Source of the DNA: Candidatus Omnitrophota bacterium
GTDB taxonomy: Bacteria > Omnitrophota > Gorgyraeia > Gorgyraeales > Gorgyraeaceae
Length of the DNA stretch: 52,969 nucleotides
Direction of reading: 5' to 3'
NCBI GenBank assembly: GCA_026387235.1
Contig: JAPLMD010000044.1
Coordinates: 1 to 52,969 of the forward strand
Shown: piece after piece, positions 2 through 39,182 of the stretch
Position numbering within the stretch: the first letter of the stretch is position 1
How the letters are laid out: the number at the start of each line of letters is the position of its first letter
Notes under the pieces: model-generated
Seen by the model: the letters and a program-made list of their open reading frames with translations, nothing else
Databases searched by the model: none
What the model was told of the DNA's origin: nothing
Position numbers and translations under genes: made by a program

Positions 2-3000
2 ATCACAGCTCTGTCTGAAAATAGCGGCATAAGCTACGAACTGCTTAATAAACTCATGGAAAAACGCAAAATCAGATGTCTGAGGTTTAATATACCTGGA
101 TTTACAAAGGAATCTATCTTGATATCCGAAAAGGATATCAAGAATTTACAGGAAAGAGAAATGTCCAAGCTTAATGAGTTTCGCAAGAGGTATCTGCCGA
201 GCGAAAAACAGGCTGTGAGAAGCGCAGATGATATACAGAGACTTAAGGACACATATGGCGTTGATGCTGTTAGAAAAAAGCTTGGAATTGATTATTTTTC
301 CTTTAGGAGGATGGTTATAGAGAGGCGTATAAGATGCAGGACATTTGAGATACCAGGCATTGCGCAGGCTTTTACATTAATACGCGAAGAAGATATGGAT
401 TTCAGTAAGCTGTATAAAAGAGAACTGGCCAGCCTTAATAAGTTTTGTAAAGAGCATCTGCCAAGCGAGTCACAGCCAGTGGCAGACCTTAAGGATATAA
501 GGCTGCTTATACAAAAGTATGGCTCTAATGCAACGTGTAAAAAACTTGGCATTACGTCCAGGGCTACATTGAGAAAATTTCTGATAAGAAAAAATATTTA
601 TTATAAAGTATTTCGCATAAAGAATTTGATTGACGAATTTATACTGATTTCAGAAGCTGATCTTAATGGCGTTATGCAGAAATCTGAATCAGATAGAGCT
701 TTGAAACAACAGCAAGCAAGTGAAAGGTTAAAATCAATTCGCGCATTTTTAACATCCTTGGATATTCGCACAGATATAAATGGTATTGAGAATAGATTGA
801 ATAAACTGCTGGGGAAAAGGAGTGAATATCATTTGCGCAGGCTTGAACGGGTATGGAAGCCATACTCTAAGATGGGGCTCAGGTTAGGTTCCGCAAGCTT
901 TATAGGAATTCTGGAAAAATCAAGAGGGCCCAATGACTTTATAATTCGATTTGATAAAAGATTACAAATAATGCATCCTGGAGTCAGAGAGCTTGGCATG
1001 GTAGTGGATTGGGGCATTGCGCAGGTACCTGAAACAAGACGCGAGGTATTTAAAAATAAGGTTATACCTGCAATGATTGCTGTATCTGGAGAGCAGCGAA
1101 GAGTATCAGGCGTTGGTATTCTAGGTTTCTTCCAGATGCTTGTAGAAGCAAGTGGAGTAATTGGCACCAAGGAGAATCCTTTGCCGCCTGGTTCTCTTGT
1201 TGTGCATGAAGAGTTTGGGCCAGGCATAATAGAAGAACCGGCACATGATAGTCAAAAGCCAGGCAATAATGGACATATCTGCGTTCGTTTTATTAATAGG
1301 TCAGTAACTTTTGTCCCGAATAGTGTTTTATCACCTTTTTCCAACCAGAGCAATTCAGGCACTCATCTCGGGACCAAACATACATATGATCCAGACTTCA
1401 GGCCTTTCGCTGCCTATGATACTAAAACCGGCGCAGCGCAGCATATGAATTTTGATGAAGCACATCAAGACCTGGTAAGGACGCTTATTAATATGCCTGG
1501 GACAGCTATATTCAAGGCTGAGACTAATGACATACTAACACAGATTAATCCAAATGCCCCGCCAGAAACTGTACAAGTTATAGAAACCAAGTTGAGGAAT
1601 ATTTTACCTCGAATTATTCCTGTAATAGAGAAACCTGTCTACTTTTACTTCTTTAAAGGCGCAGAAAAACCCGCATATCTTGGCAATAATCCTTATACCC
1701 TTCTTGATGCAAAAGGAGAAGATAATAAAAGAGGCATTGTTTATCTTGAGGCTGGTTCAGGCGGCATTGATCCTGAAACTGGTGAATGGCGTAATAATCC
1801 TTCTGTATATCTGACACAAGAACTTTTTACAAAACTCTCATCTGAAATCCTTATAGGTGTTCTTCCTGAAGAGCTGGAGCACGCAGCAGTTAAGACAAGC
1901 GGGGATCATGCTGCGGAAAAATGGGAAGCCCAGTCTGATCGCTTAGACAAACTGATTAGCTTGCGCATAGGGCTCCTTAATCATGATATTCAGGAAAATG
2001 ACATTTGGAGGTCTGTAGAACGAGCCAGTGTGCTTATTGATGTTGAAGAGTATGATGCTGCAGAAAGAATATTATACGGACTCCTAGACACAAATCGTGT
2101 GAAATTACCAGGGCAGCTATTAAGCATTACAAATGTCCTGGATAGACTGTTAAAAGAACAAGGGCGGCATGAAGACCGCATTAGGGCAGCTGACAAAGCA
2201 ATTGCAATTGCTGGCAATGTCTTTAAGCCAGGCAGCACTCGGTACAGAAATCCCAGCAATTTAGCGATAGCAGTATCTAATGCTATTTATTATAAAGCCA
2301 GGGCTTTGGAGGCCTTAGGCGAGCATGATAAGGCAGTGAAAATTGCTATTAGCGCTTTGGAAGATTTGAAACAAAAGAATCATCTTGTAGAGTTAGCTAG
2401 TGTTGAATTCAAAAATATTTGGTTTGAATTATCAGCTTCACTCAGCGGGTTTATTGGAGATAAACTGTCACAATCATGGGAAAAGGATTTGAAAAAAGAT
2501 GCCTTGTATCAGGCAGAAGACTATTTAGCTGCAGCGATAGATAATTTTGCGAGATGTACTGATACTAATATCCAGTCTGTATCTGTTTATCAGGCAAGAT
2601 TGGCCTGGACCTGCTTCTATAAAAGCAGGTATGAGGCGTTAAATCCAGCAGGGAAAGAGAAGGCAAGTATGTTTCTGGCCAGGGCCAGGTCAGCTGCCAC
2701 AGAGGCCCTAAAAGCCTATCGCACTCCTGAAGCCTTGACTATTAATGGTGTGCTTACAGAAGCAGAAGGGGCGCCGGAAGGCAGGGGGCAGGCAATTAAA
2801 TATTTGGAGGAATCGTATAAACTGAGCCAGGTGCCGCGCACTGCTATAATGCGCGCGAAGGTGGCGTTACGCGCTCATGATATAGAAGGCGCTGAATACT
2901 GGCTAAATGAATTAGAGAAGGACACTATGTCGCAGACTTATATAAAAGGCGCATGGTTATGCCAGAAGGCCGCAGCATTATGGGGTAATGAGTCACAGCG

Positions 3001-6000
3001 AGATCTCGCATGTCAGTTATATACAGAAGGCCTGGATATGTTAGATAAAGTTTCTAGCGCGCAAAACAAATTATGGTTCGGTATTTTAGGTGAACTTGAT
3101 TCATATTATCAATATAGATTTACAGCTTATGTACGGCTTGGACAGCTCAACGAAGCAATGATAGAATTACCAGCACTATTAAATACCTGCCAAAATATTG
3201 ATGATTTAGCCAAATTTTTAACAGGCACACTGGTTTCTTGGGCTGAATACGAGGCTCTGGTTAAAGCGCTAACTGGAATAAAGAATGGGCGCGGCGTAGA
3301 AGAACTTGTAAGCGCATTGGAGAAAAAATTACAGAGCCAGCCTGATAATCCGGCTGCAGTTACAGGATTGTCTACATTATCTGCGTTTGGCCAGGCAAAG
3401 AAATCACATGTGTTTGAAACAAAGAGAAAAGAATGGCAGACAATATTTGGCCCAGGGTCGCTTAAGGCCCAAAATAGGACACCTGTTACTGTAGATACTA
3501 TGCGTCAGTTTCTTAATGCGTTGCGTGCTACATTGACTATTCAGGAACAAGCAGAGTTTTTAGCTGAATGTGTGTCTCCTAAGGAGTTATTAGATAAAAC
3601 TGCTATAACTTCGCGTCAGGGCTCGATAGTCAAGGTAGTTATGGAAGAAATCCAGAGAATAGTAAGTCCGGAACTGTCTGAAAAAGTAATCGAGGATTTG
3701 TATAAGAAAATTGATGACCTGGAAAAAGACCACCGAAAACAGCTCGACCCATTGCTTAAAACAAAAGGCCTTATTGATACTATTTTTGAAGTTCGTAGTA
3801 AATTGAAAAAGGCTTTAGGGTTGCTTCTGGAAAAGCAAAAACAGACACTAGCTGCGCATGAAGAAGAGGTAGAGCCTGTTGTTGAAGTTGTAGAAGCTGA
3901 GCCTGCGCCAGCAGAGGTAGCGAGAGAAGCTGAACCTATAGCAGAAGAAGCACAAGTGCCAATAGTAGAGGACGCAGTACAAACTATATCTACCAGTCGC
4001 TCAGGAGCATTGGACCAGCAGTTGACAGCTGAAGAATTAAGAACACGTAGAGATCAATTAGAAACAGATTTTCTTGGAGCTCTTGATCAGGTCAGCAGAT
4101 TGCGATTGCCTGAAAGCAATCGCGCATTAAAAGATTTAAGAAGGACAGCGCATAAATTACGTAAGAGAGCAGAAAGGTTTAATACAGAGTTGCTTCCAGA
4201 AGTAGAAAAATTAGAAACAAGCATTAGGCAGCTTGAAATGCAGCTTGCTCAAATAGAATCAGATGTTCATGTACAGGCATTGGATCAGCCAGCAATTGAT
4301 GCTATTCGTCAGTTAGGAACAGTAAGAGAATTAGGACAACATCTTTTCGATATGTATGGCATCAGAGGTGTAGCTAAAGCAACATTAGCCAATGCCTGCA
4401 TAAAAGGCGGAGTAGATCCAGTAATTATCTGGCGCATAGCTATTAGCGAAGGATGTAAAACACAAAATGATACTGCGCAGTATAATCAGGTACTTGCTCA
4501 GTTGCAAGAAAATAGAGGATTGCCAGGCAATAGAAAGGCCGGCAATTTACTTCAGGGCTTGACAGTTCCGGTTGTATTGCTAGGCCGCGCATTGCATCTT
4601 CCAGACAGGATAACAGCAGGTTTGGGTGGAATGGAAGAAATATTCTTCAGCTGGTTTTTCTGCACTGTGCTGCCAAATATATTGCATCATTGGGGCATGC
4701 CTCCAGGATTTGGTTTGGCAATAGGCGTTACCTTAAGTATGTTCTTCTGGTCAGCAATGCATTGGAAAACTGCATATAAGTTGGTTCACTATGATTTTTC
4801 TGAAAAAGACAGAGTTCGTTATGGTGTTTTGAAAGAAAAAATACCTACGCCTCTTAGCCGCATGTTACTTTTTGGCATAGGGGCTGGTTTAAGAATAGTT
4901 TATATTTTAGCTCAGATCGTAGCGCCTTGGTTAGCTTTACCCTTAGTTATGGCGCTTCATAGCTATTACAATGTTAAATTTGCCTTTGATAGAGGCCTGC
5001 CGCAGGCAATAGCAAATTATATAAAGATAGGCCGTGGTATTTTAACGCTGTTTGTTATAGCAATGGTTAATGGTGCGGTTGGCCAGGCTGCGACAACGGT
5101 AAGAGAGCGAACTGAGTCAGCACTCAAAACACCGCAGACTAACATTACACTAGTTGCTCAGAATAAAGAAACAATAGAAGTGAAGAAATGGGTGAAGAAG
5201 TTTGGCAAAGAAATAAAAAGAATTTTTATTGAAGCAGGAGATAAGGATGAACAGGCAATTGTTTTCGAGATGAAAAAAGGCAAAGGAGATGGGTATAGGC
5301 TATCAATATCAAGCAGGGATTCTAAATTAGAAATTAGCGATGCCGCAGGCCGCAATAAAAAGGCATTGGCTCCTGAAGAAAAGCTTGGACTATTAGGCGT
5401 GTTGAAAGAAATGAAACAGGGCATGGAAGCATATGGTGAAAAAATGCAGCCTATGAACAAGCTCTTAAATAGGATTATTGAGTTGTTTGAAGAGCATACC
5501 GAAACTACTCCATTAAAGCAGGGGCCATCCGTAATTCCAGAAGCAGGTTATAGAGATCATATGCCAATTCTTGGGAAAGCAATATTATTGATGCTTGGAA
5601 TACCTGCGCTTGCTTCTGCAGGCCAGGATATTGCTCAGGTTATTAACTTGTTGCCTTTATCTTCACTACTTATAACAGTTAGTCTTGCATACTTGGTTTA
5701 TCGTTATTTAATCAAAACAGGTTATGCCAATAGAATATTATCTTTGTTACACGATCGGTCAACGCAGATACTGGCAGTGTCACTGACAGGGGCAGCTCTG
5801 GCCACAGCTGCAGGTTTTTGGTTTGGATTATGGACGTGGCAATTAGGGGCTGCTGTTACTATTGGTTTTGCAGCACGTTATATCGGACTACAAACTTCTA
5901 AGGCAGAGTATTCTGCTTCTGGTTATATAATGCTGGCTATGCTTAGCACCTCGCTGACGTTTACAGCCTTTTTTGGATTATGGAACGATTCGCTTTATCA

Positions 6001-6634
6001 TTGGATCCATGCCTATCCGCCTCTTATTAAAAGCTCGATTGCTTTTATAAGCGGGGTAGGCTTCAGCGCAATATATGATGGTATAGAGAGGTTATTATTT
6101 GGGTCTATTGTTCGTTCAGCGCAAATTACGCCTCAAGATGCATTCAAACGAAGCGGCATACTTGTTATGGCCAGGCTTGGAGTAGCATGGGCGCTGCATG
6201 TATTGGTTCAGGCTATACCTAGAGAGTATTTATCATATAAAATATTAGCTGGTTCCATTGGAGGATTTGCCCTTAACTGGTTTAGAAGCAGCGGCATGAA
6301 TAGGGAAAAAGAAGGGGTATCTTTTCTGTGGATGATAGGGAGTGGTTTATTAGGCACAGCAGCGTGTTTCGTATTTGTAAATTGGTCTACGGGCTTGGCA
6401 GGATTATTTCTTACCGCAGCCTCATTGCTATATTTTAGACGGGGACATATTTCAAATTGGTTTAAGAAACTCGAGTTAACTAAGGCGCGCTATTATAAAT
6501 GGAAGGAATATTACCGAGGTATAAAATATCTTATGTTTACTATACTGAGTACGCATAAATCAGTTGAGTTGAAAAAGACTTATATTAAGCCATCTCTGCA
6601 GAAGCCAACAAAGGCAGCGGTAACGAGCATTTGA
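2..6634 (+). CDS. giant multidomain membrane protein, 5'-partial (>=2210 aa): tandem excisionase/MerR-like HTH repeats, Tudor-like beta domain, TPR-like helical region, coiled coil plus acidic linker, two polytopic membrane blocks
   Basis: The frame is open from nt 2, with no stop before the ATG at 56. Residues upstream of that ATG (..NSGISYELLNKL) continue the ~95-aa repeat seen again at KKLGIDYFSFRRMV and KKLGITSRATLRKF, so the start lies outside the window. GSLVVHEEFGPGIIEE...ICVRF..RSVTF resembles the UvrD/PcrA C-terminal Tudor-like fold. There is a long helical/TPR-like stretch, an EP/EA-rich acidic linker (nt ~3860-3990) and many hydrophobic helices after nt ~4600. Confidence 0.8.
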   Translation: MTALSENSGISYELLNKLMEKRKIRCLRFNIPGFTKESILISEKDIKNLQEREMSKLNEFRKRYLPSEKQAVRSADDIQRLKDTYGVDAVRKKLGIDYFSFRRMVIERRIRCRTFEIPGIAQAFTLIREEDMDFSKLYKRELASLNKFCKEHLPSESQPVADLKDIRLLIQKYGSNATCKKLGITSRATLRKFLIRKNIYYKVFRIKNLIDEFILISEADLNGVMQKSESDRALKQQQASERLKSIRAFLTSLDIRTDINGIENRLNKLLGKRSEYHLRRLERVWKPYSKMGLRLGSASFIGILEKSRGPNDFIIRFDKRLQIMHPGVRELGMVVDWGIAQVPETRREVFKNKVIPAMIAVSGEQRRVSGVGILGFFQMLVEASGVIGTKENPLPPGSLVVHEEFGPGIIEEPAHDSQKPGNNGHICVRFINRSVTFVPNSVLSPFSNQSNSGTHLGTKHTYDPDFRPFAAYDTKTGAAQHMNFDEAHQDLVRTLINMPGTAIFKAETNDILTQINPNAPPETVQVIETKLRNILPRIIPVIEKPVYFYFFKGAEKPAYLGNNPYTLLDAKGEDNKRGIVYLEAGSGGIDPETGEWRNNPSVYLTQELFTKLSSEILIGVLPEELEHAAVKTSGDHAAEKWEAQSDRLDKLISLRIGLLNHDIQENDIWRSVERASVLIDVEEYDAAERILYGLLDTNRVKLPGQLLSITNVLDRLLKEQGRHEDRIRAADKAIAIAGNVFKPGSTRYRNPSNLAIAVSNAIYYKARALEALGEHDKAVKIAISALEDLKQKNHLVELASVEFKNIWFELSASLSGFIGDKLSQSWEKDLKKDALYQAEDYLAAAIDNFARCTDTNIQSVSVYQARLAWTCFYKSRYEALNPAGKEKASMFLARARSAATEALKAYRTPEALTINGVLTEAEGAPEGRGQAIKYLEESYKLSQVPRTAIMRAKVALRAHDIEGAEYWLNELEKDTMSQTYIKGAWLCQKAAALWGNESQRDLACQLYTEGLDMLDKVSSAQNKLWFGILGELDSYYQYRFTAYVRLGQLNEAMIELPALLNTCQNIDDLAKFLTGTLVSWAEYEALVKALTGIKNGRGVEELVSALEKKLQSQPDNPAAVTGLSTLSAFGQAKKSHVFETKRKEWQTIFGPGSLKAQNRTPVTVDTMRQFLNALRATLTIQEQAEFLAECVSPKELLDKTAITSRQGSIVKVVMEEIQRIVSPELSEKVIEDLYKKIDDLEKDHRKQLDPLLKTKGLIDTIFEVRSKLKKALGLLLEKQKQTLAAHEEEVEPVVEVVEAEPAPAEVAREAEPIAEEAQVPIVEDAVQTISTSRSGALDQQLTAEELRTRRDQLETDFLGALDQVSRLRLPESNRALKDLRRTAHKLRKRAERFNTELLPEVEKLETSIRQLEMQLAQIESDVHVQALDQPAIDAIRQLGTVRELGQHLFDMYGIRGVAKATLANACIKGGVDPVIIWRIAISEGCKTQNDTAQYNQVLAQLQENRGLPGNRKAGNLLQGLTVPVVLLGRALHLPDRITAGLGGMEEIFFSWFFCTVLPNILHHWGMPPGFGLAIGVTLSMFFWSAMHWKTAYKLVHYDFSEKDRVRYGVLKEKIPTPLSRMLLFGIGAGLRIVYILAQIVAPWLALPLVMALHSYYNVKFAFDRGLPQAIANYIKIGRGILTLFVIAMVNGAVGQAATTVRERTESALKTPQTNITLVAQNKETIEVKKWVKKFGKEIKRIFIEAGDKDEQAIVFEMKKGKGDGYRLSISSRDSKLEISDAAGRNKKALAPEEKLGLLGVLKEMKQGMEAYGEKMQPMNKLLNRIIELFEEHTETTPLKQGPSVIPEAGYRDHMPILGKAILLMLGIPALASAGQDIAQVINLLPLSSLLITVSLAYLVYRYLIKTGYANRILSLLHDRSTQILAVSLTGAALATAAGFWFGLWTWQLGAAVTIGFAARYIGLQTSKAEYSASGYIMLAMLSTSLTFTAFFGLWNDSLYHWIHAYPPLIKSSIAFISGVGFSAIYDGIERLLFGSIVRSAQITPQDAFKRSGILVMARLGVAWALHVLVQAIPREYLSYKILAGSIGGFALNWFRSSGMNREKEGVSFLWMIGSGLLGTAACFVFVNWSTGLAGLFLTAASLLYFRRGHISNWFKKLELTKARYYKWKEYYRGIKYLMFTILSTHKSVELKKTYIKPSLQKPTKAAVTSI

Positions 6635-13495: not shown

Positions 13496-13539
13496 CCTCG
13501 CAGATTGCTGAAAAATGCAATCTGCGGGGTTTATTATTC
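13496..13539 (+). terminator. intrinsic-terminator-like hairpin after the lipoprotein gene
   Basis: cctcgcagattgc / gcaatctgcgggg form a stem of about 12 bp with one mismatch and an 8-nt loop, followed by tttattattc. The hairpin abuts the ATG at 13542. Confidence 0.45.
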
Positions 13540-13541
13540 AT

Positions 13542-14765
13542 ATGAAAAAAATAGTTATAGTTGTAATTTCCGGAGTAATTGCGCTTATATTAATAATCTC
13601 TTCTTTATTATTTGCGTTTTCCCGCATAGCAGGCGCAGACAGGGTTTATATAAAAACTATCGAGGGAAAACGTTTTCAGCTAGTAGTCAAAAATCGCCCT
13701 TATATTATTAAAGGTATGGTTTACAACCCTGTGCCGATAGGTAAAAACCACGAATATGATTTCTGGAGCGATCCGAGAAGACCTCACATGGTGGACGGCG
13801 AGCTCATGAAAGACGCAGGCGTGAATACTATAAGAGTTTACCAGTCTGGCAATTATGTAAAAGCCACAAAAGGTACAATGAATGATTTGTATAATATATT
13901 CGGGATAAGGGTGGCAATGGGGCATTGGCTTGGATTCTGGGATAACCCTAATTACGCAGACCCTGTTTTCAGGGAAACAGTAAAAAAAGATGTCCTGGCT
14001 ATGGTCAGGGCTTATAAAGACGAGAAAGGGATTCTCGTATGGATATTAGGGAATGAAAACAACGTGTCTTTCTCATACGGCCCGCAAAGCGCGAATCTAT
14101 GGACTACGGATGAGATAGAAAAATTGGATGATCCGTTTTTAAAGAGGCAGGCAAGGGCGAAATTTTATTATTCTTTCGTAAACGAGATTGCCAGGGAAAT
14201 ACATAAGATAGACAAAAATCACCCAGTGGTTTTAGCCAATGCAGAGCTTACAGACATAGATGCTGCAGTGGATGTTACGCCTGACATAGACATACTGGGG
14301 TGCTCGATATATCGAGGAAAGTCATTTGGAAGTTTTTTTAGAGAAGCCCAGAAAAAGCTTAATAAACCGGTTCTTATAACAGAGTTTGGATGCGACAAAT
14401 ATGATGCATTTTTAGAAAAAGAAGATCAGGCTATCCAAGCTGAATTTATAGAAGCGGAAGTAAAAGAGGTAGATAAAAATATATTTACCGGAAACGGGTC
14501 CGGGAATTCGATAGGTTGTTTTGTGTTTGAATGGACGGATGAATGGTGGAAGTTTAAAGAAGATGATGCCGAAAGATGGGGCATCCACGATACTATACCA
14601 AGCTGGTCAAACGGCGCGTATTATTTTGATATAAAGGCTCCTCAGAATCTTAATATAAACGAGGAATGGTGGGGCATATGTTCCTTGAAAAAAAAGAAGT
14701 CAGGCGGTCTTGACGAACGCATACCTGCTCAGGCATACTTTAAGCTAAAGGAGTTGTGGAAATAA
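13542..14765 (+). CDS. membrane-anchored clan GH-A-like TIM-barrel glycoside hydrolase (paralog of 10336..12672)
   Basis: I chose the start at MKKIVIVVISG... (signal anchor). The track start at 13515 lies inside the hairpin. Motifs: NTIRVYQSG, VWILGNENNV, ITEFGCDKY, FEWTDEWWK and EEWWGICS. Confidence 0.65.
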   Translation: MKKIVIVVISGVIALILIISSLLFAFSRIAGADRVYIKTIEGKRFQLVVKNRPYIIKGMVYNPVPIGKNHEYDFWSDPRRPHMVDGELMKDAGVNTIRVYQSGNYVKATKGTMNDLYNIFGIRVAMGHWLGFWDNPNYADPVFRETVKKDVLAMVRAYKDEKGILVWILGNENNVSFSYGPQSANLWTTDEIEKLDDPFLKRQARAKFYYSFVNEIAREIHKIDKNHPVVLANAELTDIDAAVDVTPDIDILGCSIYRGKSFGSFFREAQKKLNKPVLITEFGCDKYDAFLEKEDQAIQAEFIEAEVKEVDKNIFTGNGSGNSIGCFVFEWTDEWWKFKEDDAERWGIHDTIPSWSNGAYYFDIKAPQNLNINEEWWGICSLKKKKSGGLDERIPAQAYFKLKELWK

Positions 14766-17476
14766 TGAGAGGTCATAAGGTCATAAGGTCACAGGGTCAC
14801 AAGGTCACCAATATTTTTCTGCCATTGTGTCTTTTTGTCCTGGTGTCCTGGTGTTCTTGTGTCTTGGTGTATGCCCAGGAGCAGAATATTGCCGAGAGTT
14901 TTGGCCTGTACAGCAAGGGCATAGATTATTATCATAAAGGCAAATTGTATGAAGCGCAGGAGACTTTGGAGCAGGCAGTGAGGCTTGACCCGAGAAACGA
15001 TGAGGCCCAGGGTTACCTGGACCTGGTGAACGCGGAAATTAATATGAGGGAGCAAGGCAGGTTAAATTCATACCAGGACACGAATTCCTCTATAAGAGAA
15101 ACAGATTTAGAACATAAACAATATAAAAATAATCCTGAGCCTTACAATCCGGAAAAGTATGCTGAAGAAGATACAGTAGCCAAAATTACCTCTACTAAGC
15201 CTCGTATCCCGAAGATAAGAGGAGAGTACAAGATGTCAGTTGGGGTAACAGGCGAAGACCTAATCTGGAAACAGGCAAATGGGGACTATAACGAAAGAAA
15301 TTTTAGAATGATAGACCATAATTTTCCCAAGACTAACACATTTGACACCAGGGTATTTGACAGGTTTAAGGTGGTGTTTGATACAAATCCGGAAAATAAC
15401 GGCTTTAATCTGCATTCAGATATTACAGTGGATCCATGGAGTTTTACAGGAAAGACAAAAAAATTTACAGTAAATAGCGGAGTGTGGGGAGATACGACTG
15501 AGTTTGAGCTTAAGTATTGGTCAGGCACAAGAAGCACTATAAATGAAATATTCTATAGTTCAAAACTCGGCGATTCTTTTGGGCTGCCGGAGATCAGGGT
15601 TAAAGATGGCAATACGTCAACTGCCAGCGTTTCCGGAGCAATCGTAAATGAATTTGGTATTAGCGACACCGTATCTATACCGGAAAAAGATATTGATTTT
15701 ATGTTTCAGCCTGTCAGAGAATTATGGGTTGATTTTAAGGACGACAGTAATAATCTAAGGATATTTCCGCTTGGCTTGGAAGATCAGGCCTTTACTTCTG
15801 ATGATCCGCTAGGGCTTTCGAATCACCATATCTACTGGGAGGCCAGCCCATGGCTTTATGACTGGCTGCCCGGACATGTTAATACCGGGACAGTGCCCAA
15901 TGATTTCTGGCGCGGACAATGGTCGAACACCCTGGCGCATTTTACAAGGGACAGCGACTTAAAAAGGCTCACTGCCTTGAGAGGCTTTTCTTTCCAGGGA
16001 GATTTTTTATCTAACGGCAGCATTGCCACTACCATTGCTGCTCCAAAAACTTTATGGCAGGATTATGACAGCGTGACTGCCTTGCCCGGCGCATTGAGGA
16101 TAAAGACCCAGGCAACAGACAATCTCATGTTAGGCGTCATCGACACATTCAGGATAGGATATAACGATGGAGGGAATGATTCTTATAATAATGTAATAGG
16201 GATGGATATGGGTTATGATGTCAGCTCTACGGCAAAGATATCAGCCGAAGCAGCTGTAAGCAAAAGCGAGGACGACAGGACAAGTTCTTATAAAACAGAT
16301 AAAGACGGAAGCGCAGGCCATATAGCTTTTAAGGAGGAAACAGGCATAGGGGGTGTAAAATTTGCATTTACGCATATGGATGAGGCCTTTGACCCGGGTC
16401 TTGCGAATTATAAAGAAACCAGAAAAGACCAGTCATGGGGCAGGCATATACATTTTAAAAAGCCGCTAGAATACACTTCATGGGGGAATTCTACGCTGAA
16501 ATACGATGACATAGATCCTTTCAGGATAGGCGACGGCGTAGATACCGGAAGGGATGTCCTTAATTTCAGGCTGGACAAAAAAGATGCATTTGATAAAAAA
16601 ATGGATAACCTGATAGATTACAGGAATGTCAGGGATTCGAACCATAAATATGTAGAATCTGTGGTGAGAGAGGAGAATGTTTTCAGGGTGAATCCCGAGT
16701 GGACTTCAAAACTTTTGTTATTATACCACGATCTTCCTAAAACAAAAGGCGGCATAGACCCTATACAGTATAACGCAACTACCGGAGAATATCTGGAAAA
16801 TGCAGCTGTGGAAGACGGAAAGAACCCGTCTCTTTCTACGTATTCAGCCGGGCTTGAATATGCCCCGGAGGAATGGATAAGTATTTTTGGCATATATGAA
16901 AATACAAATGATTCTACGTTTGCTACAGGGAACTACCCAAGGGGGCTTTTGAATAGCACGTATTTTACAACAGAAACCATAGGCGGAAAGGTTTACAGAA
17001 AAGAAGTGCCCCAACTCTACAAGCAGGGATATTTTGATATGCCGCCATATGAGCGTTTTAATATATATCGGGGCGGTGTTTTATTGAAATTCGCAGCCGG
17101 TTTAGGAATAGAGCTTGATTATACTAAGAATGATTTTAAATATGCAGGTGGTATAGATGATAATATTAATCATTTCGGCACGACATTAAAATATGAGTTT
17201 AACCAAAAACTTACCGGATTTTTGAAATACACTTTTTCAAGGGCATATAATCTTTATAGGCTTAATACGAGCGGTGATTTAAAATATCAAAGCCATCACA
17301 ATGTATTTATGGAAATGGACTATGTTGTAAGCGAAGACGGGCTTTTGGTGGTGCAGTTCGGAGAAGGTTCGGTCATTTCTCCTGTATGGAGCTCTACCGT
17401 AAGCCCATTTGGGGGTTTCTACCCAACGTTAGATACACAGCATATATTGCGTATTTATTATAATGGAAGATTTTAA
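14756..17476 (+). CDS. large putative outer-membrane beta-barrel protein with N-terminal TPR-like segment
   Basis: 906-aa ORF with a Sec-type signal peptide (..IFLPLCLFVLVSWCSCVLVYA|QEQ). The body is rich in Y/G/N/D and the C terminus, ...LRIYYNGRF, has a terminal Phe as in beta-barrel outer-membrane proteins. The exact start (14756 or 14765) is uncertain. Confidence 0.55.
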   Translation: MEIMRGHKVIRSQGHKVTNIFLPLCLFVLVSWCSCVLVYAQEQNIAESFGLYSKGIDYYHKGKLYEAQETLEQAVRLDPRNDEAQGYLDLVNAEINMREQGRLNSYQDTNSSIRETDLEHKQYKNNPEPYNPEKYAEEDTVAKITSTKPRIPKIRGEYKMSVGVTGEDLIWKQANGDYNERNFRMIDHNFPKTNTFDTRVFDRFKVVFDTNPENNGFNLHSDITVDPWSFTGKTKKFTVNSGVWGDTTEFELKYWSGTRSTINEIFYSSKLGDSFGLPEIRVKDGNTSTASVSGAIVNEFGISDTVSIPEKDIDFMFQPVRELWVDFKDDSNNLRIFPLGLEDQAFTSDDPLGLSNHHIYWEASPWLYDWLPGHVNTGTVPNDFWRGQWSNTLAHFTRDSDLKRLTALRGFSFQGDFLSNGSIATTIAAPKTLWQDYDSVTALPGALRIKTQATDNLMLGVIDTFRIGYNDGGNDSYNNVIGMDMGYDVSSTAKISAEAAVSKSEDDRTSSYKTDKDGSAGHIAFKEETGIGGVKFAFTHMDEAFDPGLANYKETRKDQSWGRHIHFKKPLEYTSWGNSTLKYDDIDPFRIGDGVDTGRDVLNFRLDKKDAFDKKMDNLIDYRNVRDSNHKYVESVVREENVFRVNPEWTSKLLLLYHDLPKTKGGIDPIQYNATTGEYLENAAVEDGKNPSLSTYSAGLEYAPEEWISIFGIYENTNDSTFATGNYPRGLLNSTYFTTETIGGKVYRKEVPQLYKQGYFDMPPYERFNIYRGGVLLKFAAGLGIELDYTKNDFKYAGGIDDNINHFGTTLKYEFNQKLTGFLKYTFSRAYNLYRLNTSGDLKYQSHHNVFMEMDYVVSEDGLLVVQFGEGSVISPVWSSTVSPFGGFYPTLDTQHILRIYYNGRF
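14771..14870. repeat. octanucleotide tandem-repeat inverted element (GGTCAYAA)x5, 14-nt spacer, (TKGTGTCY)x~5.75
   Basis: Forward units start at 14771, 14779, 14787, 14795 and 14803. Inverted units run from 14825 to 14870. Related elements are at 32904 and 37952. Confidence 0.9.
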
Positions 17477-17492: not shown

Positions 17493-18731
17493 ATGGCCAT
17501 AAGAAAAGGCAGGATGTACGATAATTATATATTTTCAGACCACGAGAGAAAAAATTTTGCAATACTTGAACTTATCCGCAGAAACAGCCCTATCACAAGA
17601 GCTGATATCTCAAAGGCTACGGATCTGAATATAGTAACCGTTTCTAATTATATAAATAGTTATATTGATAAAGGCCTGGTTTCAGAAGGGGGTATGGAGG
17701 CTTCCACGGGAGGCAGAAAACCCACTATCATTAAATTAAATGACGATAGCGCGTATGCGATAGGAATTGACCTTGGCCACATGGATGCATCCGGCGCGAA
17801 CATGATAGGCTTGGTCACTAATCTAGCCGGGAAAGTTATAACTAAGGTGAAAAAGCCCAGGACAAAAGATACTATGGATAAGGTGATAGAGAGTTCGCTT
17901 GAGCTTATAGATGAATTGTCTAAGAAGAAAGGCGTGGATAGGAATAAAATAAGAGGCGTTGGCCTTGGGATAGGCGGTGTCATAGACGAACATCTCGGTA
18001 CGGTAAGAGATTCTACCAAGAACGGGATGAGGACGAGCTACTTATCCATAAAAGGGATGATTGAACAGAGATTTGGTTTTCCTTCTTTTATAGGAAATGA
18101 CGCAACATTTGCCGCATTCGGAGAAAAGATGCACGCTCTTCCTATGGATATACAGGATGCGATATACATGTATTCTGATGTCGGGAGCGGCATTATTATA
18201 AAAGGCGCAATGTATTGCGGCGCTTCAGGAAGCGCGGGAGAGATAAGGGTTAATTATCCGCGTAATGGAGAATACCTGCAGGTCTCAAAAAACCTTTCTT
18301 TTCTTCTTCCTGCAGGCCTTGATCTTGGCCTGGTAAATCAGGCTAAAAAACTTATAAAAGAAGATGATGTTAAGACAATGATAACAGAACTCTGCGGCAA
18401 TAAACTGGATAATATTACAGTGGACCATATAATAGAAGCGGCAAAGGCGGGTGACACTCTTGCTATAGAACTTCTGGAAGACGGAGCTGTGAATCTCGGG
18501 ATAAGAATCGCGTATCTTGTAAATTTATTTAATCCGGAGATAGTGGTTATTGGAGGCGGAATAGAAAAAGCCGGAAGCTTGCTTTTAGAGCCTTTAAGAA
18601 GGACTGTAAGAAAATGGGCATTTGAAGAACCAGCGAATGTTGTTAAAATAATACCGGCAAGGCTTGGAGAAGACTCTGTGGCCCTAGGCGCGGCAAGCGT
18701 TGTAATAAGGGATGTTTTTATACAGGCCTAA
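17493..18731 (+). CDS. ROK family transcriptional regulator (N-terminal wHTH plus ROK sugar-kinase-like domain)
   Basis: AAGGAGG SD with the ATG at 17493 (the GTG at 17487 is possible). An N-terminal wHTH-like region (ILELIRRNSPITRADISKATDLNIVTVSNYINSYIDKGLV) is followed by glycine-rich ROK motifs (GIDLG, GLGIGGVID, DVGSGIIIKG..CGASGSAGE). Confidence 0.85.
   Translation: MAIRKGRMYDNYIFSDHERKNFAILELIRRNSPITRADISKATDLNIVTVSNYINSYIDKGLVSEGGMEASTGGRKPTIIKLNDDSAYAIGIDLGHMDASGANMIGLVTNLAGKVITKVKKPRTKDTMDKVIESSLELIDELSKKKGVDRNKIRGVGLGIGGVIDEHLGTVRDSTKNGMRTSYLSIKGMIEQRFGFPSFIGNDATFAAFGEKMHALPMDIQDAIYMYSDVGSGIIIKGAMYCGASGSAGEIRVNYPRNGEYLQVSKNLSFLLPAGLDLGLVNQAKKLIKEDDVKTMITELCGNKLDNITVDHIIEAAKAGDTLAIELLEDGAVNLGIRIAYLVNLFNPEIVVIGGGIEKAGSLLLEPLRRTVRKWAFEEPANVVKIIPARLGEDSVALGAASVVIRDVFIQA
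18565..18607 (+). repeat. 43-bp direct repeat, copy 1 (inside the ROK gene 3' region)
   Basis: aaaaagccggaagcttgcttttagagcctttaagaaggactgt is identical to 20285..20327. Confidence 0.95.
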
Positions 18732-18759
18732 CTCAAAAGAATTAAAAAGGAGGCAGTTA

Positions 18760-20271
18760 ATGCAACAAGCAATGAATCAGCCGGCCCGCCATATCACAGC
18801 CCGCGAAGACCGCATTCCTATTTTTCAAAAAGCCATATACAGTATAGGAGGACTTGTTAATAGCCTTCAGGCTGCCGCTCTTGGAGCGATGGTCATTGTT
18901 TTGAACATCGGATTAGGCATGAATCCCGCTTTAGTAGGCCTGGTGGGAGCTATTCCCCGTCTTATCGATGCCATATCAGATCCTGTTACCGGTTACTTTT
19001 CAGATAATTTTCGAACCCGATGGGGACGCCGCAGGCCTGTTATATTATTTGGAGCGATTACAGGAGGGATTTTCTACGCATTGATGTTTCAACTATATAA
19101 GGGGCATAGCGAAAGTTTCTATTTCTGGTATTTCGCGCTTTTCCAGTCTCTCTATTTCCTTGGATTTACCTGTTTTTCAATCCCATGGATCGCGCTAGGG
19201 TATGAAATGACACCCGATTATCATGAGCGAACACGACTGCAGGGGGCCAGCAATTTTATCGGTCAATTTGCCTGGGTGATCGCTCCCTGGTTCTTCAAAA
19301 TCATGGACAACAAGAGTATGTTCACAGATATTGTTCATGGAGCGCGAATCCTGTCAATAATCCTCGGCGCCTTTATAGTGGTTGGCGGTATACTTCCAGC
19401 TATTTTCAATAAAGAGCGTTTCGGTGACTTAGCGAAACCTAAAAGAGAAAAGGGGGCTTGGAATGTTACGAAAGACTTCTTTAGCGGTTTTGCGGTTGCT
19501 TTCAAATGTCGTCCATTTGTTAAGCTTTGCGCGGTAACATTCTTGATCTTCAACGGATTCATGCTCGCTTCCGCCTTCTCAGCCTATGTTATTTTCTTCT
19601 ATGTTTATCACGGCGATTATTCAAAAGGCGGGACATTGCTTGGTTGGTTTGGAACGGTTAGTTCCGTTTGTACTTTCTGCGTTATCTTCTTGGCCACATG
19701 GCTCTCCACAAAGATCGGAAAGCGAAACACCTTTATAAGCACCATTTCCATTTCAATCATCGGTTACGCTTTGAAATGGATAGGGTATAACCCCAATCAG
19801 CCATACTTACTGCTGATTGCTGCTCCATTCATAGCGTTTGGCCTGGGATCGCTCTTTACACTGGTCGGCTCTATGGTAGCTGATGTCTGCGACCTTGACG
19901 AGCTTAAAACCGAAACGCGCAGAGAAGGAATGTTTGGTGCTGTTTACTGGTGGATGGTAAAACTAGGATTGGCAGTTTCATCGCTTCTCTCCGGAATCCT
20001 CCTCAATGTGACCGGCTTCAATATTGCATTAGGCGCCAACCAAACAGCTAAAGCTTTATTGTATATGCGGTTCTGCGATATCGGCATTCCGATCGCGACC
20101 TCTTTAGCCGCTATTTTTATTATTATGACCTTTGACATCTCAGAAGCTAAGGCATATGACATTCGTAAGCAGGTCGAAAGACGAAGAGAAGAAAGACGAA
20201 GCGAAGAAAGGCGAGAAGAAGAAAGGCGAGAAGAAGAAAGGCGGAGCGAAGAAAGACGAAGCGAAGTGTAA
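18760..20271 (+). CDS. glycoside-pentoside-hexuronide (GPH) family cation symporter with Glu/Arg-repeat C-terminal tail
   Basis: Start at the ATG at 18760 with an AAGGAGG SD. The track start at 18712 overlaps the ROK gene. It carries the GPH hallmark DAISDPVTGYFSDNFRTRWGRRRP and about 12 hydrophobic helices. Confidence 0.9.
   Translation: MQQAMNQPARHITAREDRIPIFQKAIYSIGGLVNSLQAAALGAMVIVLNIGLGMNPALVGLVGAIPRLIDAISDPVTGYFSDNFRTRWGRRRPVILFGAITGGIFYALMFQLYKGHSESFYFWYFALFQSLYFLGFTCFSIPWIALGYEMTPDYHERTRLQGASNFIGQFAWVIAPWFFKIMDNKSMFTDIVHGARILSIILGAFIVVGGILPAIFNKERFGDLAKPKREKGAWNVTKDFFSGFAVAFKCRPFVKLCAVTFLIFNGFMLASAFSAYVIFFYVYHGDYSKGGTLLGWFGTVSSVCTFCVIFLATWLSTKIGKRNTFISTISISIIGYALKWIGYNPNQPYLLLIAAPFIAFGLGSLFTLVGSMVADVCDLDELKTETRREGMFGAVYWWMVKLGLAVSSLLSGILLNVTGFNIALGANQTAKALLYMRFCDIGIPIATSLAAIFIIMTFDISEAKAYDIRKQVERRREERRSEERREEERREEERRSEERRSEV
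20176..20265 (+). repeat. six tandem 15-nt purine-rich repeats (GAAAGRCGRAGMGAA) encoding (ERR[SRE]E)x6
   Basis: Units start at 20176, 20191, 20206, 20221, 20236 and 20251. They form the last 30 codons of the GPH gene. Confidence 0.9.
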
Positions 20272-32894: not shown

Positions 32895-33561
32895 AGATAC
32901 ATGGGAGCACAAGGACACAAGGACACAAGGACACAAGGACACAAGTGTCGTGGTGTCTTGGTGTCCTGGTGTACCCACGAAAGCAGTCTTATATAAGGGT
33001 TTTACACTTGTTGAAATATTAATCTCACTTGCGATATTGGCAATGATAGTTACTTCTACGTTTACAATTTTCAGAAGCGCTTCAAAATCCTGGCAGAAGG
33101 GCGAGACTAGAAGCGAGCGTTATCAAAATGCGAGAAGCGCCATCTCCAGGATTAGCTCAGAGACAAGCCAGGCGGTAATTAACAGCAGTCCTCTTTGTAA
33201 ATTTACAGGAGATAAGAACAAGGTCAGTTTTGTTTCTTTTGTTTCTACGGGCCCAGGCGTATTTGAACTTAGCGAAGTGGAATACTGGCTGGATGGCGCT
33301 AAAAGGCTTCTTATGCGCAATGATGAAATAGACCCGGATTATGATTTTACAACCTATGGCCATAGCGACATATTAAGTGAAAACATTTCAGAGCTGGAAT
33401 TTTCATATTTTGATGGGTTGATATGGCTAGATACCTGGAATTCTGATCAAGCCTCAGGCGTTGGCCTGCCAAAGGCAGTTAAGATAAAGATAAGAGTAGA
33501 AGATAAAAAAGCTAAAGAAGGCGAAATTTTTGAAGTCATAGCCCGCCTTAGAACCGCATAA
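32878..33561 (+). CDS. prepilin-type pseudopilin (GspJ-like); start codon uncertain
   Basis: The KG|FTLVEILISLAILAMIV methylation motif lies 42 codons after the ATG at 32878, and those codons are largely the octamer element. In-frame GTGs at 32950/32953 would give a normal short leader but lack an SD. Confidence 0.7.
   Translation: MSLSNKDTWEHKDTRTQGHKDTSVVVSWCPGVPTKAVLYKGFTLVEILISLAILAMIVTSTFTIFRSASKSWQKGETRSERYQNARSAISRISSETSQAVINSSPLCKFTGDKNKVSFVSFVSTGPGVFELSEVEYWLDGAKRLLMRNDEIDPDYDFTTYGHSDILSENISELEFSYFDGLIWLDTWNSDQASGVGLPKAVKIKIRVEDKKAKEGEIFEVIARLRTA
32904..32972. repeat. octanucleotide tandem-repeat hairpin (GGACACAA)x4-5 directly abutting (TGGTGTCY)x~3.5
   Basis: Perfect units are at 32913, 32921, 32929 and 32937, with the inverted arm at 32946-32972. 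The loop is almost absent and there is one A.G mismatch per unit. Confidence 0.9.
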
Positions 33562-37760: not shown

Positions 37761-39182
37761 ATGAGTAATATTTACTTAAATGATACGATTGTGGCGATTT
37801 CAACGCCTATAGGAGAAGGCGGCATAGGGATTGTCCGTTTAAGCGGCAGGGAAAGCCTGGAACTTGCGGATAAAATATTTCTGTCTAAAGAGGGTAAAAA
37901 ACCTTCGGAATTCAAGACGTATACGGTTCATTACGGTCATATTATAGAAAAAGACACCAAGACACCAAGACACCAAGACACCAAAATTGTGGATGAAGTG
38001 ATACTGACTGTTATGCGGGCACCGAGAAGTTATACTAAGGAAAATGTGGTTGAGATAAATTGCCATAGCGGCATAGCGCCGCTCAAAAAGATAATGGATT
38101 TGTGCTTGGTTAATGGGGCCAGGCTTGCAGAGCCGGGAGAGTTTACTAAAAGGGCATTTTTAAACGGGAGGATAGATATACTTCAGGCAGAGGCAGTTCT
38201 GGATATAATAAAGGCAAAAACAGAACTTTCGCTGAGATCTGCGTTGAATAATCTGGAAGGCCTTTTTTCCAAAAAGATAAATGAGATAAGGAAAAAGCTG
38301 ATTGAAATATATGTCCACATGGAGGCTTCTATAGATTTTTCAGAAGATGACCTGCGGGGCATTAAAATAAGCAGGATCTTTAAAAAATTGAATATTATAA
38401 AAAATGAGATAGAAAAACTTGTTTCGAATTCTAATCAGGGCAGGATTTTACGGCAGGGTATAAAAACAGTCATATGCGGAAGCCCTAACGTAGGCAAATC
38501 CAGTCTCATGAATGCCATATTAAAGGAATCTAGATCTATTGTTACGCATATTCCTGGAACTACAAGGGATACAATAGAAGAGATTGTAAATATCAGGGGG
38601 ATTCCTGTGACGCTTGTGGATACGGCAGGCATAACTGATACAGACCATTTGGTAGAAAAAGAAGGCATAAGAAGAAGCCGCATTTATTTAAGAAACGCAG
38701 ATTTGATTTTACTGGTTCTGGATTGGTCCAGGAGGCTGAATAAAGATGATGTGGATATAATAAAGAAAATAAGGGATAATAGTAAGGAAGCGATAGTGGT
38801 TATAAATAAGGTAGATCTCAAAAGAAAATTGGATATTAAAAAGGTTAAAAGATTTTTTCCAAAGAGTTATTTTGCGCATATATCTGCTTTGAATCTGAAA
38901 GGCGTTGACAATCTGGAAGACGGAATCAAAGATATAGTTTGGAAAGGCAAGGCTCCGGGAGCAGGTTTTATAGGCGCTTCAAATGAAAGACAATTGGATA
39001 TTCTAAGGCGCTGCGCTTCAGATATAAATGAAGCTATGGCGGCGCATAAGAGCGGGTTATTCATGGATTGCACAAGCGTTTATGTAAGATCTTCTATAGA
39101 AAGTCTTGGAGAAATAACAGGCCAGACAATAACAGACGAAACGCTGGATAAGATATTTTCAGAGTTTTGTATCGGTAAATAA
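37761..39182 (+). CDS. mnmE: tRNA modification GTPase MnmE (TrmE)
   Basis: N-terminal [23 protein letters not shown] domain [21 protein letters not shown], and the C-terminal FCIGK motif. Confidence 0.95.
37952..37983. repeat. octanucleotide tandem repeat (AGACACCA)x4 inside the mnmE coding sequence
   Basis: Perfect units are at 37952, 37960, 37968 and 37976. They are read in frame as [12 protein letters not shown], and there is no adjacent inverted arm. Confidence 0.9.

Follow-up and report, generated by a model that had tools for sequence, protein, structure and literature searches.

The window analysed here, a stretch of 52,969 nt (contig JAPLMD010000044.1) from Candidatus Omnitrophota bacterium, carries a gene for a large putative outer-membrane (OM) protein whose first codons are occupied by an inverted array of octanucleotide repeats, which we call element 1. 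The element follows a glycoside-hydrolase-like gene (13515-14765) and consists of a forward arm (f-arm) of five AGGTCAYA units, in the order AGGTCATA AGGTCATA AGGTCACA GGGTCACA AGGTCACC, a short spacer and a reverse arm (r-arm) of six TKGTGTCY units, in the order TTGTGTCT TTTTGTCC TGGTGTCC TGGTGTTC TTGTGTCT TGGTGTAT (Table 1). The original prediction, made from the letters alone, had recognized an inverted octamer-repeat element at the start of this gene. Its existence is borne out by direct reading of the two arms, by Tandem Repeats Finder (TRF), which reports a period of 8 (4.9 copies with 90% matches and 4.4 copies with 81% matches), and by a pattern scan, in which three consecutive RGWCACMA units, with up to three mismatches allowed, matched 15 times in the window against 0.01 matches expected from shuffled sequence. 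The count of five forward units stands, but the spacer has 15 nt rather than 14, and the inverted arm comprises six units. At most ∼2.75 identical units follow one another within element 1. We saw no sign of an assembly artefact, and independent assemblies hold related elements at the same site.

All 15 pattern matches fall within 14771-14872, 32905-32974 and 37944-37983, and TRF found no further strong period-8 array in the window besides these three elements. The related copies that had been announced at 32904 and 37952 are thus both present, the first as a strong hairpin (element 2) and the second as a single arm (element 3).

Table 1. Coordinates of the OM gene, the three repeat elements and associated signals in the window
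Feature	Position	Strand	Basis
OM protein gene, 903 aa	14765-17476	+	Pfam TPR, AlphaFold (AF2), Foldseek
TAATG, upstream stop overlapping the probable ATG (14765)	14763-14767	+	direct reading, list of open reading frames (ORFs), orthologues
Element 1, f-arm, five AGGTCAYA units	14770-14809	+	direct reading, TRF, pattern scan
Element 1, spacer (loop), 15 nt, AATATTTTTCTGCCA, translated NIFLP	14810-14824	+	direct reading
Element 1, r-arm, six TKGTGTCY units	14825-14872	+	direct reading, TRF, frame analysis
GCC↓CAG, predicted signal-peptidase I site A37↓Q38	14873-14878	+	orthologue comparison
Element 2, (GGACACAA)x5 directly followed by (GTGTCNTG)x3.5	32902-32977	+	pattern, fold, ORF comparison
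Element 3, single arm, perfect (AAGACACC)x4.2	37951-37984	+	pattern, MnmE alignment

Judged from the sequence, ATG 14765 is a more likely start of the OM gene than GTG 14756, as it overlaps the upstream TAA, an arrangement also found in orthologues, and has an AAGGAG (14748-14753) 11 nt upstream. The location of the element within codons 6-39, as first described, holds with the GTG start. Behind the leader, the protein is laid out as TPR helices (Pfam matches), a disordered linker and a large β-barrel with a terminal Phe. The AF2 model has a pLDDT of 80 and a pTM of 0.73, and Foldseek matched it with probability 1.0 and low TM-score to TonB-dependent receptors, LptD, SlpA and ushers, so that the label of an OM protein appears reasonable for the modelled 903-aa product. 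Its homologues carry the annotation Candidatus Omnitrophota.

Read from ATG 14765, the leader has 37 residues, MRGHKVIRSQGHKVTNIFLPLCLFVLVSWCSCVLVYA, followed by QEQ. The f-arm is translated as GHKVIRSQGHKVT, which forms a basic n-region, and the r-arm as LCLFVLVSWCSCVLVY, which forms a hydrophobic h-region. Ahead of the hydrophobic core the net charge is +4, Kyte-Doolittle hydropathy over 12 residues peaks at 2.82, and positions -3 and -1 are taken by V and A (VYA↓Q, the arrow marking the predicted cleavage). AF2 predicts a helix at residues 15-33, and in a heuristic comparison the properties of the leader resemble those of the ordinary signal peptides of orthologues. By these heuristic and model-based measures, the product has the features of a Sec-type signal: a basic n-region, an h-region, small residues at -3/-1 and a β-barrel as the mature part. 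The YA↓QEQ motif is conserved among orthologues, and their alignment shows conservation up to the upstream stop that resumes at TATGCCCAGGAGCAG (encoding YAQEQ), with element 1 filling the interval between. No hydrophobic segment other than the r-arm precedes A↓QEQ in the leader of the OM gene. Since a large β-barrel OM protein needs a signal peptide and the r-arm is the only hydrophobic stretch available, at least the r-arm must be translated.

Of the six frames, element 1 leaves just one open, that of the OM gene, whereas no frame is interrupted by a stop in elements 2 and 3. TAA codons close the f-arm of element 1 in the two frames that the gene does not use. A regular (GGTCATAA)n array would carry an in-frame TAA in each third unit, and the third unit of element 1 has CAG instead. 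The exact complement of the f-arm would bring GTGAC and hence a TGA every third unit, whereas the r-arm has GTGTC and no in-frame TGA. The same replacement of GTGAC by GTGTC accounts for the poor stem of element 1, the arms of which are ∼75% complementary with one T-T clash per unit (GTCAC facing GTGTC) and the RNA fold of which is marginal (z -1.9 with tight coordinates, -0.5 with flanks). The ∼40-bp stem proposed across the translation start is thus weak in element 1; it is strong in an orthologue, L001 (z -8.7). Scans for promoters and terminators around element 1 gave nothing specific, and Rfam gave no match at gathering score and no rRNA in the window. Taken together, the boundary alignment, the single open frame, the in-frame relatives described below, the β-barrel product and the charge, hydropathy and VxA signature support the claim of the original prediction that element 1 is translated as the signal peptide of the OM protein; initiation at ATG 14765 and export through Sec are what we would infer from the same sequence features. 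A search with the 37-aa leader against 1.8 billion representative proteins was uninformative on how common such leaders are, as its six matches were five spurious ORFs through long arrays and one fragment like P0003, one of the orthologues.

OM-gene orthologues, collected by protein similarity, bear an element at the same place in four relatives: L001 (88% identity), P0003 (75%), L127 and L134. The leaders measure 37 codons in the window, 44 in L001, 29 in P0003, 50 in L127 and 40 in L134; some of these lengths depart from that in the window by exactly 24 nt or 21 nt. Unit numbers and spacers differ among these versions (the 15-nt spacer is present in P0003 and L134 and missing in L001), and all five, the window included, are in frame. 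The copy in L127 folds well (z -5.3). An ordinary, unrelated signal peptide fills the same interval in L002 (84% identical), in L125, which is 90% identical over 69 mature N-terminal residues, and in many others. The signal peptides of this OM family are unusually rich in cysteine (Cys in 41 of 43) and show LWC or SWC motifs ([LV]W[CGS] in 12 of 43). Gene callers place the starts of P0001 (L001 3001) and P0002 (L002 1784) at an internal GTG, and the signal peptide is lost; an upstream in-frame ATG restores it. Searching for exact copies of the neighbouring 416-aa protein revealed no further contig of the same strain.

At the same junction, other orthologues carry a larger arrangement. In L141 an f-arm, (AGAGCACA)x7, starts from the upstream stop and is followed by a 120-aa ORF and by an r-arm, (CTTGTGCA)x4, that runs into TAYA↓QEQ. 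The ORF encodes a 'four helix bundle protein' (TIGR02436, E 1e-33), with a weaker match to Avd, a protein of diversity-generating retroelements (DGRs). The same cassette layout is found in L133/L145 and in L142, where the four-helix-bundle gene is truncated at its 5' end. The r-arms of these loci, (CTTGTGCA)x4 or (CTTATGCY)x4, end 3-7 codons before A↓QEQ and code for the h-region, and the OM protein begins with MEILQK..., its start lying within the 3'-terminal part of the four-helix-bundle gene but in a different frame. When 200 nt upstream of the OM gene were inspected in L123-L144, unrelated hairpin or palindromic elements were seen in L124, L131, L136, L137, L139 and L144, and from these sequences the junction between the glycoside hydrolase gene and the OM gene appears to be a general landing site.

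A DNA scan with (GTGWCYTK)x3.4, taking one genome per species, returned at least 120 loci. Among the matches listed, at least 30 are from Omnitrophota and the others from Planctomycetota, Bacteroidota, Chloroflexota, Acidobacteriota, Verrucomicrobiota, cyanobacteria, proteobacteria and further groups; a CA-rich array, a loop and a complementary GT-rich array are paired in 33 of 120 by a strict criterion and in about half by eye, and the polarity is f-arm then r-arm in 31 of the 34 pairs detected. The full architecture, including the four-helix-bundle gene, was recovered at loci found by the DNA pattern alone in Planctomycetia (L010), Bacteroidota (L033) and Omnitrophota (L027), and the units of L027 are the GACAC/GTCAC of the window. 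In the reverse test, in which four-helix-bundle genes were chosen by protein homology alone, every sampled gene had arms: tandem-unit arrays of the same polarity flank the gene on both sides in L146, L147, L148, L150/152/153 and L154, and in L149 on the one side that its contig shows. These cassettes lie between co-oriented genes, namely those for CobN and Mg-chelatase, ExbB and ExbD, or CYTH-domain and DAGK/NAD-kinase-family proteins, and one lies ahead of a NuoD-like gene (complex I 49-kDa domain). Rfam, run on ten cassette loci with E values up to 0.1, gave no match.

Two of the cassettes bear on mobility. L146 and L147 are unrelated operon junctions of one assembly (CobN/Mg-chelatase and ExbB/ExbD), yet positions 909-1380 of both share 472 nt at 99.4% identity, including the four-helix-bundle gene (354/354) and the inner arms, and each copy directly follows a TAG stop. 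The four-helix-bundle gene is the only gene associated with the cassettes at these loci. Unit number also changes, and does so on short time scales: between L150 and L152, which come from different samples, identity over 1623 nt is 99.1%, and the sole gap is one 8-nt f-arm unit, AAGAGCAT, present three times in L150 (∼960-985) and twice in L152; L153 has the same two-unit sequence. Slippage is the probable cause of this change.

Elements of this family were expected to associate with the 5' ends of envelope genes. This expectation was not upheld, as the Omnitrophota copies associate with gene junctions and tolerant loops generally. Of 37 elements at other Omnitrophota loci, about 12 stop 2-9 nt short of the start codon of a long ORF and about 8 consist of one arm embedded in a long ORF; cytoplasmic housekeeping genes are among those downstream. 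At L039, L057, L074, L075, L097, L102 and L121, the gene that begins 2-9 nt after the element is of cytoplasmic type, with an N-terminus that resembles, as judged by eye, that of TrxB, Maf, MnmG, phosphoglycerate mutase or IspD. The r-arm units hold GTG and TTG in all three frames, plus a GGTGA complementary to the 3' end of 16S rRNA, and sequence features of this kind suggest that the elements at those seven loci may supply a ribosome-binding site or a start. L055 was considered as a second element-encoded signal peptide and rejected, as its product is a cytoplasmic-type AmmeMemoRadiSam B/A fusion with a likelier start at a GTG/TTG in the r-arm. Elsewhere, long arrays are called as spurious proteins.

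The two other elements of the window also contribute to coding sequences. Element 2, which is predicted to fold into a strong hairpin (z about -5 to -6; -5.1 and -5.9), separates the stop of a gspI-like gene (32894) from the prepilin motif G↓FTLVEIL encoded by a gspJ-like pseudopilin gene. The only in-frame starts of the gspJ-like gene are ATG 32878 and GTG 32949/32952, all upstream of or inside the element, which therefore supplies at least the start codon and the leader. At this junction a close relative, L155 (85% MnmE identity, from the same sample as L001), shows another hairpin, with a AACAATAACCAAAC-type unit, and its leader is of the usual kind, with seven residues (MYSKLSRG). Behind gspJ, L155 also carries a GIY-YIG ORF with no counterpart in the window; these two features of L155 fall in 1466-1672 and 2359-2637.

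Translation of element 3 gives KDTKTPRHQ, nine residues that are inserted, relative to solved structures, into a loop of the N-terminal domain of MnmE. Among 120 Omnitrophota MnmE orthologues, this loop, ∼150-260 nt into the gene, holds from 0 to ∼30 extra residues between nearly invariant flanks (HYGHI[IV][ED] and [IV][IV]...), and the inserts are translated lineage-specific 7-8-nt tandem arrays. The loop contains (AGACACCA)x4 in the window (37930-38000), the same four units, diverged, in L155 (7180-7240), (AGAGCACC)x4 in L157-159 and (GACGAAC)n in L156. Several lineages have exactly four units of different sequence, and one also has an unrelated small palindromic element; the loop is a hot spot.

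We consider it fairly probable that element 1 is a gene-less ('solo') copy of a foldback cassette found across many bacterial phyla and built around a four-helix-bundle gene, similar to the intervening sequences (IVSs) of rRNA genes, and that it has been taken over as a signal peptide. This reading builds on points that we regard as established, namely the anatomy of the element and the family to which it belongs, the conservation of its frame among relatives, the fact that just one frame is open, and the unit-number polymorphism seen elsewhere. A full cassette comprises a CA-rich f-arm of 7-8-nt tandem units (e.g. GACACAAG, GTCACAAG, GCACAAGA or GCACCAGA), a ∼117-aa four-helix-bundle gene (TIGR02436/PF05635, S23p, a relative of the DGR protein Avd) and a GT-rich r-arm complementary to the f-arm. 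Cassettes and solo hairpins alike are placed after a stop codon and ahead of the next gene in the same orientation, and at the OM gene the element takes up all the space from the upstream stop to the signal-peptidase site, its f-arm becoming the n-region and its r-arm the h-region. The composition of the units would favour this use: (GGACACAA)n is translated as GHKDTRTQ, its complement (TTGTGTCC)n as LCPCVLVS and (TGGTGTCT)n as WCLGVLVS, so that CA-rich units give K/R/H/T/Q/G and GT-rich units L/V/C/S/W. Because the f-then-r polarity is the same on either strand, read-through yields a basic stretch and then a hydrophobic one, and the element may, by its sequence, be pre-adapted to the n- and h-regions of a Sec signal. 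Slippage would let the number of units drift, selection would retain only the frame-keeping, stop-free versions, and the RNA stem of element 1 would have largely decayed. With no ORF between the arms (15-nt loop) and with arms of short tandem units in variable number, the window copy is filed as a gene-less derivative rather than as a full member of the cassette class.

Several points weigh against this explanation. The 53-kb window has no four-helix-bundle gene, and the link between element 1 and the cassette draws on shared architecture, unit similarity and orthologous position, not on an alignment of unique sequence. Neither a target-site duplication nor a cognate transposase was recognized at the copies in the window or at L146/L147, nor did we see a reverse transcriptase, and the word 'mobile' is based on one duplicated cassette and a patchy distribution. 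The element-bearing orthologues are scattered among element-free ones, which by sequence would fit one old insertion or repeated ones, and some signal peptides of the family that look 'ordinary' could be arms that have decayed, or else the arms could have arisen in place out of such sequences. Finally, a shorter leader could start from an in-frame TTG or GTG inside the r-arm, without the f-arm.

The original prediction had seen in element 1 the classic layout of a contingency locus, in which slippage of a single 8-nt unit would switch the OM protein on and off at high frequency, as in opa. The unit is not a multiple of three and lies inside the signal-peptide codons of a surface protein, unit numbers vary among relatives, the one-unit polymorphism between the samples of L150 and L152 affects a related arm, and the opa genes provide a precedent (PMC3960869). 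However, the tracts of element 1 are imperfect (90% and 81% matches, with runs of ∼2.75 identical units at most), the five element-bearing versions include no frameshifted allele, their length variants keeping the frame, and the repeats belong to a dispersed cassette rather than to this locus. Moreover, perfect tracts of four to five units of the same family lie in the housekeeping gene mnmE and at the gspJ start, and related arrays occur inside or before cytoplasmic housekeeping genes in relatives. We therefore regard the contingency layout as distinctly unlikely, and element 1 is probably not a dedicated on/off switch. It is unlikely, too, that the element acts chiefly as an RNA hairpin on expression, as an RNase III site or by occluding the start, with translation beginning at a TTG or GTG in or after the r-arm and the long ORF arising incidentally from a repeat with few stop codons. 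Folding is indeed far better than in shuffled sequence for element 2 and for most copies between cistrons (z -2.5 to -8.7), IVS stems (PMC4990558) and Correia elements (PMC2649163) are RNase III substrates, and the GTG/TTG codons in all three frames of the r-arm, like the roughly 12 of 37 Omnitrophota elements that end 2-9 nt before the start of a long ORF, would suit such a role. Against this, the fold of element 1 does not clearly exceed chance, its f-arm is closed by TAA in the two unused frames and open in the used one, and the r-arm has to be translated as the sole hydrophobic stretch before A↓QEQ of an exported barrel.

A purely local origin, by expansion of an octamer-like seed within an ordinary signal-peptide sequence and with convergence as the source of the resemblance to other arrays, seems very unlikely to us. 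Element-free orthologues end their signal peptides near one r-unit (e.g. GGCGTCCTGGTGGTGTATGCC in L124), the signal peptides of the family are rich in Cys and Trp, and same-site arrays differ in unit sequence between lineages. Nevertheless, expansion of one seed leaves the inverted partner arm, the constant f-then-r polarity and the full cassettes at the same junction unexplained, and three elements of one family lie within 23 kb of a window that has no other strong period-8 array. As for the arrays being binding sites of a global DNA-binding regulator, the idea comes from Geobacter metallireducens, in which 48 paired sites, with four tandem octamers apiece on opposite strands and a variable distance between them, were so interpreted (PMC2700814). 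For the present elements we find it scarcely credible: there is no candidate regulator, copies lie inside coding regions, that of MnmE included, the units vary widely between genomes and between sites of one genome, and an 8-bp period does not match helical phasing. The solo-cassette origin of element 1 thus remains our preferred reading.

Among known systems, the closest are the 23S rRNA IVSs of Leptospira and Coxiella burnetii (PF05635, TIGR02436), in which a small four-helix-bundle ORF likewise occupies the loop of a long stem formed by inverted repeats. The IVS of C. burnetii, a selfish element of 428 nt, carries the S23p ORF in its loop, and the inverted-repeat stem is a substrate of RNase III. 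Depending on the strain, two or three tandem GACAGAT heptamers are present in the 5' part of this IVS, and elements of this type are regarded as selfish and possibly mobile (PMC4990558). The arms of the cassettes described here resemble it in consisting of short tandem units of variable number. Unlike the IVSs, the copies lie between or inside protein-coding genes and not in rRNA, their arms are long arrays of 7-8-nt units, many are without an ORF, and the window copy is translated as part of a protein. In the literature on octamers, on tandem repeats of Omnitrophota and on TIGR02436, we found no description of tandem-repeat arms outside Coxiella, of intercistronic placement or of translation.

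The opa genes of Neisseria share with element 1 a repeat unit that is not a multiple of three within the signal-peptide codons of an OM β-barrel protein; their CTCTT repeat lies in the leader-peptide region and encodes part of the hydrophobic core (PMC3960869). However, opa tracts are long, perfect, of single orientation and locus-specific, with on and off alleles observed, whereas those of element 1 are imperfect, inverted and part of a dispersed family that also occurs in housekeeping genes, and only in-frame versions were seen. Correia elements (nemis) and hairpins of the repetitive extragenic palindromic (REP) and enterobacterial repetitive intergenic consensus (ERIC) type are, like the present ones, short dispersed inverted-repeat elements between co-transcribed genes, and Correia elements fold in the mRNA, are bound or cut by RNase III and alter the expression of neighbours (PMC2649163). 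The present family has terminal inverted repeats, fixed polarity and many dispersed copies (at least 120 loci), as do Correia-type elements and miniature inverted-repeat transposable elements (MITEs), but Correia elements have terminal inverted repeats of unique sequence, a TA target duplication, no tandem-unit arms and no four-helix-bundle gene, and no target duplication was recognized at the elements studied here. The paired octamers of G. metallireducens likewise comprise four tandem octamers per strand at variable distance, in dozens of copies per genome; their unit is GTTGCTYN, and they were read as regulator sites and insertion-sequence targets, with no coding use or four-helix-bundle gene reported (PMC2700814).

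The MnmE insertion (element 3) is comparable to another class, the Rickettsia palindromic elements (RPEs). These are said to have been described by Ogata et al. in 2000 as selfish palindromic repeats lying in frame within ORFs and translated in surface loops of conserved proteins. RPEs are unique sequences of ∼100-150 nt and not arrays of 8-nt units, and we know of no RPE that provides a signal peptide.

In a wider sense, which we put forward as a doubtful possibility, genes for four-helix-bundle (Avd-like) proteins bounded by inverted 7-8-nt arrays might form an undescribed class of intercistronic mobile cassettes that crosses phyla, with arms written or homogenized by a templated process and not by slippage alone, and with remnants that would regularly provide host genes with start codons, leader peptides, loop insertions and entire signal peptides of the Sec type. 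Templated writing of the arms would explain both the fixed polarity and the same-site arrays of different but internally uniform units, such as (AGACACCA)x4 and (AGAGCACC)x4 in the MnmE loop. Telomerase-like repeat addition at breaks was also considered as the origin of the polarity and was dropped; with no reverse transcriptase seen, it is no more than speculation. If the solo-cassette reading of element 1 is correct, a selfish hairpin can give a working export signal in either orientation, which would be a concrete way for non-coding repeats to replace existing signal peptides or to create new ones. The reading would also give a genomic anatomy, with tandem-repeat arms and stop-to-start placement, to the common and functionless annotation 'four helix bundle protein', and tie that anatomy to the old puzzle of the rRNA intervening sequences. 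In practical terms, gene callers disagree on start codons at such elements.

The OM gene sits in a one-strand sugar-utilisation cluster with genes for an ABC sugar transporter, three glycoside-hydrolase-like genes, a ROK regulator and a major facilitator superfamily (MFS) sugar transporter, and all ORFs of the window that were taken as genes are on the + strand. Leftmost in the window lies a 2192-aa ORF (56-6634). At its 3' end, the MFS transporter gene (18712-20271) contains (GAAAGACGAAGAGAA)x6 with a 30-nt higher-order repeat (20176-20266), which presumably encodes a charged repetitive C-terminal tail.

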